A stretch of 35,370 bases of DNA from a virus (taxonomy: Duplodnaviria > Heunggongvirae > Uroviricota > Caudoviricetes): positions 1 to 35,370 of IMG/VR virus record IMGVR_UViG_2778261448_000004. One strand, written 5' to 3'. Below the pieces are notes generated by a model that saw nothing but the letters and a program-made list of their open reading frames with translations, searched no databases and was not told the DNA's origin. Below, one piece after another: positions 3,796 through 34,821 of the stretch (position 1 is the stretch's first letter; the number at the start of each line of letters is the position of its first letter). The translations under genes were made by a program, and so were the position numbers.

Positions 3796-4848
3796 TTATT
3801 TCCCCACCAGCTCGTTTATCTCTTTCACTGTCTGGTTAAACCGCTCTGACTCAAGCTCAACACCTAAGGCCCGACGCCCCAGCGCCATTGCTGCTTTTAT
3901 TGTGGAACCGGATCCCATAAAAAAATCAGCAACCAGATCACTAGGTCGACTACTGGCATTGATTATTTGCCTGAGCATATCCGCCGGTTTCTCACACGGA
4001 TGTTTACCCGGGTAGAACTGAACGGGTTTATGCATCCAGACATCGGTATAAGGCACGGAGACTGATACGGAGAAATAGCGCCGGAGAGATTTAAACTCAT
4101 CCAGCAATTCAGAATATTTGCGATTCAGTGAATCATAAGATGCCACCAGCTGGTGGTGTGGTTGTTCCAGTTGTTGTTCCTGAAACTTCTCTGCCGCTAT
4201 ACGGGAAAACAGTGCCTGTAACTTCCGATAGTCAGCCTCATTCGGCAACTGCCACTGACTGGCACCAAACCAGTGGGAAACCATATTTTTCTTACCTGTG
4301 GCTTCGGCAATTTGTTTTGCCGTTATACCCAGTTCGGCACGAGCATCCCTGAAATACGATATCAGCGGTGCCATTATGTGCTGTTTGAGTTCCCTTTCTT
4401 TTGCCGCATAGCAGTCACTTTTGCCGCGATATGGCCCCTGGTAATGTTCAGCAAACAGAACGCGCTCTGTGGCAGGAAAATATGCGCGCAGACTTTCTTT
4501 ATTACACCCATTCCAACGTCCGGACGGCTTCGCCCAGATGATATGGTTAAGCACGTTGAAACGTTCACGCATCATGATCTCAATATCAGATGCCAGGCGA
4601 TGCCCACAGAACAGGTAAAGGCTTCCGGCAGGCTTTAACACCCGCCAGAACTGGGCCAGACAGTGGTCCAGCCACTTAAGGTAATCTTCGTCCCCTTTCC
4701 ACTGATTGTCCCAGCCGTTGGGTTTCACCTTGAAGTACGGCGGATCGGTAACAATCAGGTCAATGGAATCATCAGGCAGGGACTGAATAAAATGCAGGCA
4801 ATCAGCGTTGATTAAATCAACACTGTTTATTTTTACAGTATTTTTCAT
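3796..4848 (-). CDS. DNA methyltransferase, N6-adenine/N4-cytosine family (beta class), orphan
   Basis: 350 aa; N-terminal catalytic motif IV DPPY (LIVTDPPYF); C-terminal AdoMet motif I FFMGSGST. No adjacent restriction endonuclease gene. Confidence 0.85.
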
Positions 4849-11524: not shown

Positions 11525-11757
11525 GCTGCACCTCCGAGATGCTTCATGTTTTTTCCGGAGCGAAAGGCTATAAGCGGCATACTGACGCGGTAATTACGGC
11601 CCAGCGGTTCACAAACCACCTTCTGACATTCACGGTCAACCAGGCTGACACGTAGAACATGCCCTGCAGGCGTGGTGTACCACTGCCCAACTGTAGGAAT
11701 TGATGTTTTTTTACGCTGAAGCAAACGGCAAATATTGAGGATCAACGGATTAAGCAT
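11521..11757 (-). CDS. hypothetical early protein (78 aa)
   Basis: Translationally coupled in a compact operon (overlaps both neighbours); no motif recognised. Confidence 0.5.
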   Translation of the reverse strand: MLNPLILNICRLLQRKKTSIPTVGQWYTTPAGHVLRVSLVDRECQKVVCEPLGRNYRVSMPLIAFRSGKNMKHLGGAA

Positions 11758-12586
11758 GACGATGCCCTCCGCTGATATTCAGGAGACGGTGAATATGAAA
11801 ATTAGCCTTATCCGCCAAACGGATACGTTCAGCCTGCAAGTTAAGAAGGGTTTCTACCAGAACCTGATGCGCCTGCGGATCCGAAAGAGTTACCTTGCGC
11901 AGAGCACGTAGTGCAGTTGTTACATAACTGAGTTTATGTAAGTCTTCATCATTCAGACGAGTGAGGGCTGGGACAGTAGCCATGATGGCAGCCTCCGATA
12001 ACAGTGAATTACCTTCACCACCGGAAACGCCAATTTCGCTGGTGGTGAACTGAACGGGGTTGGCGTAACCGGCGTTATCGGAAACCGGCGCACCTTTCGG
12101 TGCCCCCGTCCAGCCCACCATAATTTGGGTGTGCGCAGACGCAGACGATAAAAAAGACGCTGGCGCGTCATATATCGCCGATAACATTTCCAGGACGCCA
12201 ATCCCGGCACCCGCTTTATAAGGTGCCTGAACAGTGTAACGTCCCGGAATGGCAGAATCAATGTGCTGGTGGTCCTTCACACTCAACAAAATCACGCCTG
12301 AATTTCCACAAAGGACTAAAGCACTCATGCGGGTAGTCTTTGCGAAGATAGATAACGCGCTGTGTTTCTGGCTCCCAACGAATAACATGGACATAAAGCC
12401 CTCTTCCGTCACGAAACCAGCGGTTAAGTTCCTGCACAACTCGCCCCCCACAGTCAGGTAAAGTTCTCTGTGGTTACTTACAGCCAGGTGATTTGGTAAT
12501 CTGCATTCATGCCGTAACAACAGGTGTGCAGCGACACTGACCACCAGCTGTTGCGACAAACGGTTATTTGCCGTTAAACTGTTCAT
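11750..12586 (-). CDS. hypothetical early protein (278 aa)
   Basis: Overlaps both neighbours by a few nt; no Walker motif; position between immunity region and replication gene. Confidence 0.6.
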   Translation of the reverse strand: MNSLTANNRLSQQLVVSVAAHLLLRHECRLPNHLAVSNHRELYLTVGGELCRNLTAGFVTEEGFMSMLFVGSQKHSALSIFAKTTRMSALVLCGNSGVILLSVKDHQHIDSAIPGRYTVQAPYKAGAGIGVLEMLSAIYDAPASFLSSASAHTQIMVGWTGAPKGAPVSDNAGYANPVQFTTSEIGVSGGEGNSLLSEAAIMATVPALTRLNDEDLHKLSYVTTALRALRKVTLSDPQAHQVLVETLLNLQAERIRLADKANFHIHRLLNISGGHRHA

Positions 12587-13177: not shown

Positions 13178-13378
13178 TTAATCTTTCGGATAGATATCCG
13201 GTCTTAAGTCAGATTTCGTAATTGCACCTGACGTGCATTGCTCAAGTTTTTTAGCCAGCACAAAACTGGCTTTTTTATAACCATTGAAAACCAGCCGTAA
13301 GTAGCCTGGTGTTGAGCCAACTTTTCCGGCCAACTCGCCCTGCTGTTCTTTGGTTAAAGAGTCCCAATACGCTTTCAT
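13178..13378 (-). CDS. Cro-like HTH repressor (66 aa)
   Basis: MKAYWDSLTKEQQGELAGKVGSTPGYLRLVFNGYKKASF... with GGAGG RBS 9 nt upstream of ATG 13378; divergent from the CI-like gene. The 167-aa track ORF is an upstream extension across the operator region. Confidence 0.7.
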   Translation of the reverse strand: MKAYWDSLTKEQQGELAGKVGSTPGYLRLVFNGYKKASFVLAKKLEQCTSGAITKSDLRPDIYPKD

Positions 13379-13468
13379 ACAATATGTACCTCCGGTATAC
13401 ATATTACATGATTGAGATGAACCTTCAAGATACTTGTACCTTATCGGTACAAAGGTTTTAATTTCTTT
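13379..13468. promoter_or_regulatory. immunity-region operator/promoter interval (divergent cI-like and cro-like promoters)
   Basis: 90-bp divergent intergenic region containing the palindrome TTGTACC-N5-GGTACAA (13436-13452) and a further GTACC half-site at 13386-13391. Confidence 0.5.
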
Positions 13469-14143
13469 ATGAAAACAGTCCATGACATCCGGCGGTCTAA
13501 CGCCAGAAAACTGAGAGATGGTGTTGGCGGGAATTCTTCCTTTGCCACCATGATTGATCGCGAGCCAACCCAGACCAGCAGGTTTATGGGAGATGGTGCT
13601 ACTAAAAATATCGGTGACAGCATGGCGCGGCACATCGAAAAATGTTTCGACCTGCCTGTCGGATGGCTTGATCAAGAACACCAGACCACGAACATCACAA
13701 AAAAACCTGATGTTTCAATCACTAACAAACAAATAACGTTAGTCCCTGTCATATCATGGGTACAGGCCGGAGCATGGAAAGAAGTTGGCTATTCTGAGGT
13801 TGATTTGAGCACAGCAGAAACTTACCCCTGCCCTGTACCCTGTGGCGAAATGACTTATATCTTGCGGGTGATTGGTGATTCAATGATTGATGAGTACCGC
13901 CCGGGAGACATGATTTTTGTTGATCCTGAAGTCCCTGCCTGCCACGGTGACGACGTTATTGCATTGATGCACGATACAGGCGAAACCACCTTCAAGCGGT
14001 TGATAGAAGATGGAACACAGCGTTACCTCAAAGCATTAAACCCAAACTGGCCTGAACCTTACATTAAGATCAACGGTAATTGCTCTATAATTGGTACAGT
14101 GATTTTCTCAGGAAAACCAAGAAGATACATAATAAAGGCCTAA
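13469..14143 (+). CDS. CI-like phage repressor with C-terminal S24 (LexA-like) peptidase domain
   Basis: 224 aa; C-terminal VIGDSMIDEYRPGDMIFVDP ... TFKRLIEDG carries the Ser and Lys of the S24 self-cleavage dyad; N-terminal HTH-like region; divergent from cro-like gene. Confidence 0.8.
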   Translation: MKTVHDIRRSNARKLRDGVGGNSSFATMIDREPTQTSRFMGDGATKNIGDSMARHIEKCFDLPVGWLDQEHQTTNITKKPDVSITNKQITLVPVISWVQAGAWKEVGYSEVDLSTAETYPCPVPCGEMTYILRVIGDSMIDEYRPGDMIFVDPEVPACHGDDVIALMHDTGETTFKRLIEDGTQRYLKALNPNWPEPYIKINGNCSIIGTVIFSGKPRRYIIKA

Positions 14144-14154
14144 TAAATATTTAT

Positions 14155-14179
14155 AACCTGCTTCGGCAGGTTTTTTTAT
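14155..14179 (+). terminator. intrinsic terminator after the repressor gene
   Basis: AACCTGC-TTCG-GCAGGTT hairpin followed by TTTTTTT, 12 nt after the cI-like stop codon. Confidence 0.7.
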
Positions 14180-14181
14180 AC

Positions 14182-14209
14182 TTGACAATGTACCCATGAG
14201 ATACATAAT
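14182..14209 (+). promoter_or_regulatory. near-consensus sigma70 promoter with palindrome over the -10
   Basis: TTGACA (14182-14187), 16-nt spacer, CATAAT (14204-14209); the -10 lies inside the inverted repeat GATACAT-A-ATGTATC (candidate operator). Confidence 0.55.
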
Positions 14210-14215
14210 GTATCT

Positions 14216-14809
14216 AAAAGAAACACAACACAGGCAAGATTAAACAAAATTTGGTTGTAACACGGCGTATGGCACATGCGTCGTTAGCGGTCTGGGGACG
14301 TTAAAGGGGACAATCCACTCCTTGCTCGGGCAAACAAACCAGGTAGCCGGAATGTGCAAGTCAATGATGATGCTGATAAGACGCCTAACCAGCGTGGCGA
14401 TTCGGTTTGACGCCTGGGAAGAGACCAGGGTGCAACGATGAGGGCATTTATGGAGCCGTGACAAAGTGTGGTGCCGTAACTGGCTAAGTGCTCTCAGCGT
14501 TGTGGTAATCCGCGAAATGGCGCGGCGGTAAGTATGGCGGGGTTACTCTTTCCCCGTTGAGAACACCGGATTGTCAGGTTGACCATACGCCTGAGTGACA
14601 ACCCCACCACAACAGCCACTGCTTTGGCGGTACCAGTTTGTCCCCTTGCTTCCGGCTGGTACCGCTCTTTTTACAAAACAGAGAAGAGCATCACCGGACG
14701 ACGGGCTCATAACCCAATCCATCCGGGCGGCTGCCACCGCAGGTGTTCTTCTCTGTTTTGTGGAGAAACCAACCGACCTTGCAGGGTCGATATGATGAGG
14801 AGCAGCAAA
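14216..14809 (+). promoter_or_regulatory. ~590-nt structured leader / candidate cis-regulatory RNA with attenuator-like hairpin
   Basis: No convincing ORF with RBS; 10-bp perfect stem GCGGTACCAG/CTGGTACCGC (14627-14665) followed by TCTTTTT; 13-bp perfect inverted repeat CAAAACAGAGAAG (14674-14686) / CTTCTCTGTTTTG (14748-14760); several shorter GC stems. Confidence 0.4.
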
Positions 14810-15172
14810 ATGGCTAGCGAACGCAGTACTGATGTGCAGGCATTTATCGGGGAGCTGGACGGCGGCGTATTTGAAACCAAAATCGGCGCAGTTCTCAGTG
14901 AAGTCGCTTCCGGTGTGATGAACACGAAAACCAAAGGGAAGGTCTCACTCAACCTGGAAATCGAACCATTTGATGAGAACCGTGTGAAAATCAAACACAA
15001 ACTCTCATATGTTCGCCCGACTAACCGCGGGAAAATTTCCGAAGAAGACACCACCGAAACGCCGATGTATGTCAATCGCGGTGGTCGCCTGACTATTCTA
15101 CAGGAAGACCAGGGACAATTACTGACTCTTGCCGGTGAACCTGACGGAAAACTCCGCGCAGCAGGTCATTAA
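14810..15172 (+). CDS. yfdP: hypothetical phage protein, YfdP-like (120 aa)
   Basis: ATG 14810 with GAGGAG RBS; 120 aa; first of a block whose lengths and order (120/274/178 aa) match yfdP-yfdQ-yfdR of E. coli prophage CPS-53 by recollection. Track ORF is a 5' extension. Confidence 0.55.
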   Translation: MASERSTDVQAFIGELDGGVFETKIGAVLSEVASGVMNTKTKGKVSLNLEIEPFDENRVKIKHKLSYVRPTNRGKISEEDTTETPMYVNRGGRLTILQEDQGQLLTLAGEPDGKLRAAGH

Positions 15173-16062: not shown

Positions 16063-16189
16063 TTTCATTACTGCAAATGCCCCTGCGGGGGCATTTATGG
16101 AAACGTAATTGACTCAATAATCGCCGGATGGTGAGGGCTTCCTTTTACCAGAATTCAGCGCGGTGCAGCGCATATACGTGGAGAACAAA

Positions 16190-33287: not shown

Positions 33288-34821
<1,534 letters not shown>

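Follow-up and report, generated by a model that had tools for sequence, protein, structure and literature searches.

The 35,370-nucleotide (nt) DNA of IMG/VR record IMGVR_UViG_2778261448_000004, a Caudoviricetes phage sequence analysed here over its full length (the window), carries 594 nt between its early-left promoter pL and the first gene behind it. This leader has no conserved reading frame and contains a strong hairpin with a U-run and a long inverted repeat. Our preferred interpretation, to which we assign a probability of roughly 0.55, is that the leader is a self-contained cassette of non-coding RNA modules located behind a repressor-controlled early-left promoter. On the plus strand, the cassette runs through module A (14250-14432), hairpin H (14437-14498), module B (14499-14613), a linker (14614-14625) and terminator T (14626-14672), and is followed by module D (14673-14769) and hairpin E (14774-14789). 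All elements that an earlier inspection of the bare letters (the sequence-only reading) had described here are present at or near their reported places, and its view of the region in the pL position as non-coding, structured RNA is borne out.

The predicted fold of the whole leader has an energy of -225.6 kcal/mol, as against -197.8 +/- 7.3 kcal/mol for shuffled sequences (z -3.8), and both codon periodicity and a conserved open reading frame (ORF) are absent. When used as BLAST query, the 666-nt region splits into separately distributed pieces. Some part of it is matched in 4,738 of 5,426 complete Escherichia coli genomes, most matches spanning only query positions 350-472, and its modules are common to lambdoid, P1-like and epsilon15-like phages. 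Judged from these comparisons, the leader is mosaic in nature: its modules are conserved separately and are shared with P1 and epsilon15-like phages. A scan against Rfam 15, which the sequence-only reading had proposed, assigned the leader to no family, whether in the window at gathering threshold, in positions 14100-14900 at E <=10 or in four related loci at gathering threshold.

Module B, delimited by homology to the Qin prophage and phage P1 and by comparative pairing, is predicted to fold into a pseudoknotted four-way junction. Its closing stem (helix P1, 14499-14505 with 14607-14613, GUUGUGG/CCACAAC) surrounds three hairpins: P2 lies within 14510-14525, P3 pairs 14526-14529 with 14566-14569 and encloses a hairpin at 14538-14556, and P4 occupies 14571-14601. 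The pseudoknot is formed by GUAUGG (14532-14537) and CCAUAC (14583-14588) in the P4 loop. Among 64 distinct IMG/VR sequences, 96.0-96.6% of cells pair, while only 32-62% do so when the partner strand is slid. In 23 diverse sequences, including those from Citrobacter, Trabulsiella, Erwinia, Izhakiella and P1, the proportion is 94.9%, in an alignment fitted to the model in a way that favours the structure. Compensatory changes among homologues, named as a check by the sequence-only reading, were observed in the modules; in the 23-sequence alignment of B they are double-sided at 10 of 28 pairs, a number reached by none of 500 shuffles. G-U pairing is common (UG:32/UA:24 and GU:41/GC:23 are examples), and since G-U alternates with G-C and U-G with U-A, the folded strand of B is the plus strand. 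Junction and loop nucleotides are invariant, whereas stems vary. A covariance model of B (R1) gives 172 bits for Qin, 158.6 bits for the window, where it finds a single copy, and 100.3 bits for P1. In one-genome-per-species data, true homologues of B are limited to Enterobacterales.

Terminator T has a 13-base-pair (bp) stem, a 15-nt loop and the tail UCUUUUU. Its core is the 10-bp perfect GC-rich stem that the sequence-only reading had noticed together with its U-run (GCGGTACCAG at 14627-14636 and CTGGTACCGC at 14656-14665, followed by TCTTTTT); the stem extends further to 13 bp and stays a candidate terminator or attenuator. Its energy is -21.2 kcal/mol (z -4.9) and its arms covary across hosts (GGUACC/GGUACC, GUGAUC/GAUCAC, GGCGUC/GACGCC). 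With GC-rich stem, U-run and covarying arms, T is predicted to be an intrinsic terminator of DicF type. A hairpin with T-run occurs within 170 nt downstream of B in all 154 copies (94 of them distinct), including the P1 type, in which the terminator is unrelated in sequence. Much longer T hairpins are found downstream of B in relatives from Trabulsiella (L259), Erwinia (L261) and Izhakiella (L263) and in locus L168.

In E. coli K-12, a homologue of B resides in the Qin prophage between ydfC and dicB and ends 26 nt before the gene for the small RNA (sRNA) DicF. Window positions 14499-14613 are about 92% identical to Qin DNA 5' of DicF, and the 3' half of DicF (UUUGGCGGUA.CAGUUU ... CCGC.CUUUUUA) aligns with the GC-rich hairpin of the window after a gap of 19 nt. 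The missing 19 nt (UUAUCAAUUUUCUGGUGACG), which in Qin are additional to the linker (AGCCACUGCUUU in the window), correspond precisely to the DicF 5' end and seed. By this alignment, B and T together are homologous to the Qin DicF precursor, the 190-nt long DicF, and the conserved block is its body. The region has the attributes of a DicF locus, i.e. a conserved upstream body, a terminator hairpin UUUGGCGG...CCGCC-U5 and a position in an early operon. The idea of an independent sRNA, put forward in the sequence-only reading, thus came near the truth: the hairpin is homologous to the DicF terminator, and about 115 nt preceding it match the conserved body of the 190-nt form.

In Qin, RNase III-dependent 190-nt and RNase E-dependent 53-nt forms of DicF have been described, along with transcripts of 1,146 nt ending at the DicF terminator and of 1,608 nt arising by read-through (PMC10448788). 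DicF binds Hfq (PMC10448788; PMC5069750), and its single-stranded seed, made by the RNase E cut, acts on xylR and pykA (PMC5069750). This seed (UUUCUGGUGAC) is absent from the window owing to the 19-nt deletion. The Rfam DicF model RF00039 has no window match at gathering threshold (48 bits) and none at E <=10 over 14100-14900, whereas the Qin control reaches 76.7 bits. By a crude duplex calculation, which leaves intramolecular structure out of account, T of the window pairs with ftsZ at -28.6 kcal/mol (shuffled mean -34.1), more weakly than 91% of shuffles; the DicF control reaches -38.5 kcal/mol (shuffled mean -32.2), with 8% of shuffles as good. Because both the DicF 5' seed and complementarity to ftsZ are lacking and RF00039 is unmatched, we rejected the window copy as a DicF-type antisense regulator.

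Module A is a conserved 5' RNA domain with homologues in P1/P7, phiV10/TL-2011b and phages of Klebsiella, Salmonella and Enterobacter; pattern searches of the window returned a single copy. It comprises a hairpin at 14262-14284 with the loop UGGCACA, an invariant 21-mer CAGGTAGCCGGAATGTGCAAG at 14340-14360, and two 3' hairpins at 14381-14395 (loop YUMACCA) and 14413-14429 (loop GGAAGAGA). In the latter two, loops are conserved and stems are exchanged wholesale, with double-sided changes in 18-38 sequences. Hairpin H (GAUGAGGGCAU...AGUGCUCUCAGC) is the counterpart of the Qin stem holding the putative RNase III site; stems of H differ among relatives and yet stay complementary (AAAGGCG/CGCCGUUU and GAGCGCAC/GUGCGCUC). 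By the size of 190 nt reported for long DicF (PMC10448788), cleavage of the Qin stem probably gives its 5' end.

The motif GGCGUAUGG at 14264-14272, within the first hairpin of A, can pair perfectly over 9 nt with the P4 loop of B (CCAUACGCC, 14583-14591). The same loop also forms the internal pseudoknot of B, and the A motif is conserved even where B is absent. This complementarity could permit contact or competition between A and B.

Association of A with other elements was surveyed in 126 copies from fetched loci. A is followed by B in 37 of them. In 26 copies, all from epsilon15-like phages, a genuine tRNA-Arg(UCU) stands at +166, which is the same distance, and in 27 copies from P1-like phages A lies directly after tRNA(CAU). 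Most of the remaining copies precede B2, a different cloverleaf with three inner hairpins, which shares the closing stem (GUUGUGGUG/CACCACAAC) as well as linker, T and D with B. The order in phiV10 is A, H, GUU, tRNA-Arg, a small hairpin and a T-type terminator (GGCGGUGAUGG...CUAUCACCGCC+CUUUUUACA), so that its tRNA-Arg is followed by the same GGCGG...CCGCC+CUUUUUACA terminator type as T. Since tRNA, B and B2 interchange between fixed flanks, the conserved unit is [A-H-X-T], X standing for either a tRNA or an RNA of cloverleaf shape. In epsilon15-like phages the cassette stands alone among head genes. In P1 and P7, the B block lies right after the C1-controlled promoter Pban, in a segment annotated as "dicF-like region".

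The stem GUUGUGG/CCACAAC (14499-14505/14607-14613 in the window; also loci L009, L024, L084 and L123) is kept around at least three unrelated interiors, B, B2 and B3, and in phiV10 it shares positions with the first bases of the acceptor stem of tRNA-Arg. This suggests that cassette exchange occurs at the closing stem. In P1 (locus L003, about 4700-4800), the interval from A to ban opens with the 12-mer AUUUUCUGGUGA, the same sequence as that of the RNase E site and 5' end of DicF. Behind it lies a 14-codon upstream ORF, the stop codon of which overlaps the start of ban (UAAUG).

Module D, on the plus strand like the other modules, is a long branched hairpin with a conserved GGAGAAAC and arms at 14673-14695 and 14742-14761. 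It contains the long inverted repeat directly 3' of the GC-rich hairpin, for which the sequence-only reading had reported 13 perfect bp; we found 25 nt at 84% identity with a perfect 15-nt core (14673-14697/14737-14761; -45.5 kcal/mol, z -7.3). D is conserved out to Erwinia and Izhakiella, with double changes from A-U to C-G and from A-U to G-C and a variable apical insert. Hairpin E (CGACCU-UGCA-GGGUCG) is located just before the ribosome-binding site (RBS). Its stem varies in sequence, but a hairpin with a GCAG/GCGG loop recurs whether the first gene downstream is yfdP, rdgC or xis. A hairpin resembling E (GCCCCUGCGGGGGC) follows yfdQ at about 16080-16100 (plus strand) of the window, and in locus L086 (12829-12896) this hairpin stands directly after D, as if yfdP and yfdQ had been lost by recombination between hairpins of E type. 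Hairpins with GCAG/GCGG loops may represent recombination joints at module boundaries.

The first gene of the early-left operon is yfdP, which starts at 14810 behind a GAGGAG RBS (14797-15172 for RBS and gene, plus strand), in agreement with the sequence-only reading. It is succeeded by yfdQ (DUF2303), yfdR (dNMP phosphatase), several genes without assigned function, xis and int. Neither the window phage nor a Stx2a relative with the same layout has an N-like gene.

On the upstream side, the gene of a cI-like repressor (YmfK/LexA family; ORF 13469-14143, matching Peptidase_S24) is closed by a terminator at 14155-14179 (plus strand) consisting of the stem-loop AACCTGCTTCGGCAGGTT (14155-14172) and T7. 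It is followed, as the sequence-only reading had stated, by a near-consensus sigma70 promoter of pL type (14182-14209, plus strand), which has 11 of 12 matches: TTGACA at 14182-14187, a 16-nt spacer and CATAAT at 14204-14209. Transcription probably starts at about 14216. The inverted repeat described at the -10 element does exist, with arms of 8 nt (AGATACAT at 14199-14206 and ATGTATCT at 14208-14215) instead of the reported 7. It is better read as the junction of two abutting tandem operators of 17 bp, TGTAYC-N5-GRWACA, OL1 (14189-14205) and OL2 (14209-14225), which have no strand assigned and overlap spacer, -10 element and start site. Elsewhere in the 35 kb, the operator motif occurs only at 13385 and 13435, in the OR region between cro and the repressor gene; the 8 strand-hits compare with 0.8 expected, in a test that is partly circular because the pattern was derived from the same sites. 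The same promoter is found 41-42 nt upstream of A in about 20 IMG/VR loci, and in a second immunity type the -10 element lies 35 nt upstream of A. Since the pL -10 element precedes A by 35-42 nt in two immunity types, A is the promoter-proximal domain of the early-left transcript.

Several further observations concern the immunity region and its surroundings. RefSeq names for the immunity genes at 13178-14143 are ymfL, ymfT and ymfK, as in the K-12 prophage e14; according to these names, the prophage joins immunity genes of e14 type to an early-left operon (yfdP-yfdQ-yfdR) like that of CPS-53. Rfam models detect C4 antisense RNA at 12038-12125 (82.8 bits) and isrK at 12150-12226 (63.7 bits), both on the minus strand inside the minus-strand ORF 11750-12586. 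This 278-aa ORF is called "immunity region" in phage records and transcriptional regulator by PHROGs; as it harbours the two RNAs, its annotation may be partly spurious. The pair, also present in locus L009, looks like an RNA switch of P1 immI or Gifsy isrK type in the pR operon. The Hfq-binding sRNA isrC is found in full length at 33640-33762 (plus strand; 150.4 bits, E = 7e-37).

By analogy with Qin, the cassette may work as follows. After derepression of pL, RNA polymerase would transcribe A, H and B, and a large share of it would stop at T (about 14667-14672), giving a primary RNA of ~455 nt. RNase III would cut H and possibly D, and the cut in H would release a stable, Hfq-bindable RNA of ~180 nt composed of cloverleaf and terminator, in a biogenesis similar to that of a tRNA with its 3' trailer. 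Read-through of T would yield an mRNA extending from yfdP through xis and int; since read-through feeds the early-left operon, T would serve it as an internal attenuator. The 5' end of the first gene and its translation may be influenced by D and E, in the manner of the RNase III hairpin in the lambda N leader. The conserved parts A and cloverleaf are presumably functional. We infer that the 53-nt DicF itself would be the piece, 3' trailer plus terminator, that RNase E removes from the transcript of a tRNA-like gene, a link that was not found in the literature searched.

Several points weigh against this interpretation. Taken alone, the folds of B (z -1.48) and H (z -0.28) are thermodynamically weak and unremarkable, respectively, so that support for both is comparative, and the compensatory changes were drawn from related sequences representing few independent lineages, in the case of B partly from the model-fitted alignment. 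Two mutually exclusive pairings are conserved within the 5' half of A, one a local hairpin and the other a long-range helix (GCACAU/AUGUGC). Transcription start, efficiency of termination at T and RNase sites are transferred from Qin or derived from the sequence. The explanation assigns no role to A or B, and since the operon must read through T while no N-like protein is available, active antitermination by A or B fits equally.

A broader proposal takes up the missing roles. A, B and B2 could form a class of phage RNAs not described before, a mobile "tRNA-slot" cassette (5' domain, processing hairpin, tRNA or pseudoknotted cloverleaf mimic, terminator) carried at the heads of early operons in temperate enterobacterial phages. 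The cloverleaf would be active itself, either by altering RNA polymerase so that it passes terminators in phages without N or as tRNA mimic against tRNA-directed host defences, and DicF would be a secondary invention in the 3' trailer. We offer this proposal tentatively and do not consider it probable at present.

DicF is among the oldest known bacterial sRNAs, and the strongly conserved RNA attached to it matches most complete E. coli genomes and also P1. The occurrence here of the conserved unit without the DicF seed argues that ancestral function resided in the cloverleaf and its 5' partner rather than in the antisense seed. That a genuine tRNA can replace the cloverleaf provides a concrete model of DicF origin as 3' trailer of a tRNA-like gene, and the cassette gives a handle on early-left control and read-through in lambdoid phages lacking N. 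DicF, its 190-nt precursor and processing, and the P1 "dicF-like region" are already known. As far as Rfam and searchable literature allow, the pseudoknotted four-way structure of the body, modules A, B2 and D, the cassette organisation, the exchange with a real tRNA, and the seedless copies at pL are new, and at least three RNA families (A, B/B2 and D) are absent from Rfam. Our literature search found nothing linking DicF to tRNA-like RNA, antitermination or structured RNA, although a prior description is not fully excludable. The Pas sRNAs (bioRxiv 10.64898/2026.05.13.724894), also considered, are late-region RNAs unrelated to the leader.

Among the alternatives, a processive antiterminator similar to put of HK022, which suppresses termination in cis through the beta' zinc-binding domain of RNA polymerase, would place the function in the nascent RNA: A or B would bind RNA polymerase and make it resistant to T and later terminators, enabling expression of xis and int from pL without N. 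Absence of an N-like gene from both the phage and its Stx2a relative, and the strong terminator predicted within the operon, fit this model. Moreover, A begins 25-35 nt after the start in two immunity types and HK022 putL is likewise located just downstream of PL (PMC9378689), while module B of P1 is located between Pban, which it closely follows, and a terminator, about 2.6 kb ahead of ban. Yet put of HK022, a pair of stem-loops of about 70 nt found both at pL and at pR (PMC9378689), is not a four-way junction, and the pR operon of our phage has no second copy. The homology to put considered by the sequence-only reading could not be found: R1 detects nothing in HK022, and blastn of the leader against NC_002166 24000-34000 (L005) and three other loci, the output of which carried no subject ids, gave no matches beyond known homologies. 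In addition, B is replaceable by an unrelated cloverleaf or tRNA while T stays, the cassette also stands alone among the head genes of epsilon15-like phages, and much of Qin transcription stops at T. We regard an antiterminator of this kind as unlikely.

B might instead act in trans as a tRNA-like RNA, either as decoy for tRNA-directed host defences and nucleases or as binder of RNase P, Hfq or ProQ, with T being simply the end of an RNA gene. This is compatible with the processing model outlined above, only the function is placed in trans. B occupies the same slot as a real tRNA and has the same topology, its 7-bp closing stem is often followed by N-CC, and the cargos B, B2 and B3 share this stem. 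B matches are present in most of the 5,426 complete E. coli genomes, and C4 RNA of P1 and P7 provides a precedent as an RNase P substrate. Against this, the likeness is topological only. ARAGORN reports no tRNA or transfer-messenger RNA (tmRNA) gene in the window, no Rfam tRNA row appears at E <=10, and B has no canonical T or D loop, so that it shares with tRNA-Arg only four-way topology and genomic slot. A mimic of tRNA acting in trans is, in our judgement, doubtful.

According to a third alternative, B or B2 is a small-molecule or protein aptamer that sets termination at T and so gates the operon. The architecture found here, a conserved aptamer-like module followed by a terminator, is that of a riboswitch: in the compact, pseudoknotted B, nucleotides of junction and loops are invariant and the stems variable, and an intrinsic terminator always follows within 20-110 nt of it, even where, as in P1, its sequence is unrelated. 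By inspection, with no systematic search made, no antiterminator pairing between B and T is conserved across window-, Qin- and P1-type terminators, and the GGCGGUA similarity between B and T is absent in P1. The same slot can be filled by a tRNA, the downstream genes have no common metabolic theme, and in Qin B+T accumulates as a stable RNA. Gating of this kind seems rather improbable.

There is very little to suggest that the region encodes one or more small proteins. Leader ORFs of 39-74 aa exist on both strands, and phage Ayreon and other records annotate such ORFs. In comparisons with phiV10, P1 and Erwinia homologues, codon periodicity is absent in A, B and T+D (p 0.38-0.65) and gaps are not multiples of 3, whereas yfdP, used as coding control, shows strong periodicity (p = 2e-7). 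The sole frame open through 14595-14795 has 1 synonymous versus 4 non-synonymous differences from Erwinia, corresponding ORFs of relatives vary in length and frame, and RefSeq annotation leaves 14144-14809 empty. In the relatives with long T hairpins, the loop contains AGGAG-N8-ATG/GTG UUC URC CG..., a mini-ORF beginning within the hairpin; the relatives agree in its start region but differ in its frame and length (11, 36, 22 and about 45 aa), and the window copy of T has neither this RBS nor ATG. In those relatives the mini-ORF may serve as a translation-coupled control element. A conserved coding frame, the other check named by the sequence-only reading, was therefore rejected on ORF comparison, codon periodicity and indel phase, and many phage records carry spurious "hypothetical protein" annotations here.

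A nutL site of lambda type (boxA plus boxB) read by an N-like protein, also raised by the sequence-only reading, is hardly credible: the position equals that of lambda nutL and CGCUCUUUUUACAA at 14663-14676 resembles boxA, but this motif is the 3' arm and U-run of T, the boxA-like CGCTCTTTTTACAA is not conserved (homologues have GCCCTTTTT or GCCTTTTTT; GCCCUUUUU in Qin, Citrobacter and phiV10, GCCUUUUUU in Erwinia), no boxB-like 15-nt hairpin was noted, though none was specifically searched for, and no N-like ORF is present.

Returning to the cassette of non-coding RNA modules, one of its closest counterparts among known systems is the DicF locus of Qin. Both lie in a repressor-controlled early operon; in both a hairpin, probably cut by RNase III in Qin, is found immediately 5' of B; B has ~92% identity with the 107 nt directly preceding DicF, and T aligns with DicF 3' half and terminator. 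In contrast to Qin, which has no A, the window cassette is promoter-proximal with A ahead; it also lacks the 19-nt DicF 5' end and seed, and the loop of T differs. The dicF-like region of P1 and P7, at the head of the ban operon, similarly contains the cloverleaf B between a repressor-controlled promoter (Pban/Oban) and an intrinsic terminator, and P1 also has module A, located after tRNA-Ile and before ban. However, in P1 the terminator has no sequence relationship to T, A is separated from B by 2.4 kb containing tRNA genes, and neither H nor D is present.

HK022 putL/putR resembles the window in being a structured RNA near pL in a lambdoid phage without N, and a similar element would explain read-through of T; B differs by its single copy, lack of similarity and interchangeable cargo. 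Genes for tRNAs with 3' external transcribed spacer (3'ETS) sRNAs, such as 3'ETS-leuZ, comprise a cloverleaf, an RNase E site and a short RNA ending at the operon terminator. This layout is the route by which the 53-nt DicF is made, and in phiV10 the slot is indeed occupied by a real tRNA-Arg, behind which a terminator of this kind follows; B, on the other hand, is not a tRNA by any detector, and processing of the window RNA is deduced from Qin. The lambda N leader carries nutL and an RNase III hairpin before the N RBS. Like the leader studied here, it is a long untranslated pL leader with a large hairpin (here D) immediately upstream of the RBS of the first gene, whereas the window has no conserved boxA/boxB and no N, and cleavage of D by RNase III is only proposed.

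Finally, ROOL and GOLLD are large structured RNAs of phages and prophages without assigned function, often located near tRNA genes and some with embedded tRNAs (PMC12286853). Their Rfam models are unmatched in the window and in four related loci, and the window cassette differs from them by its Enterobacterales hosts, smaller size and modularity. Association with tRNA genes is nevertheless common to both, as 53 of the 126 copies of A abut a tRNA.

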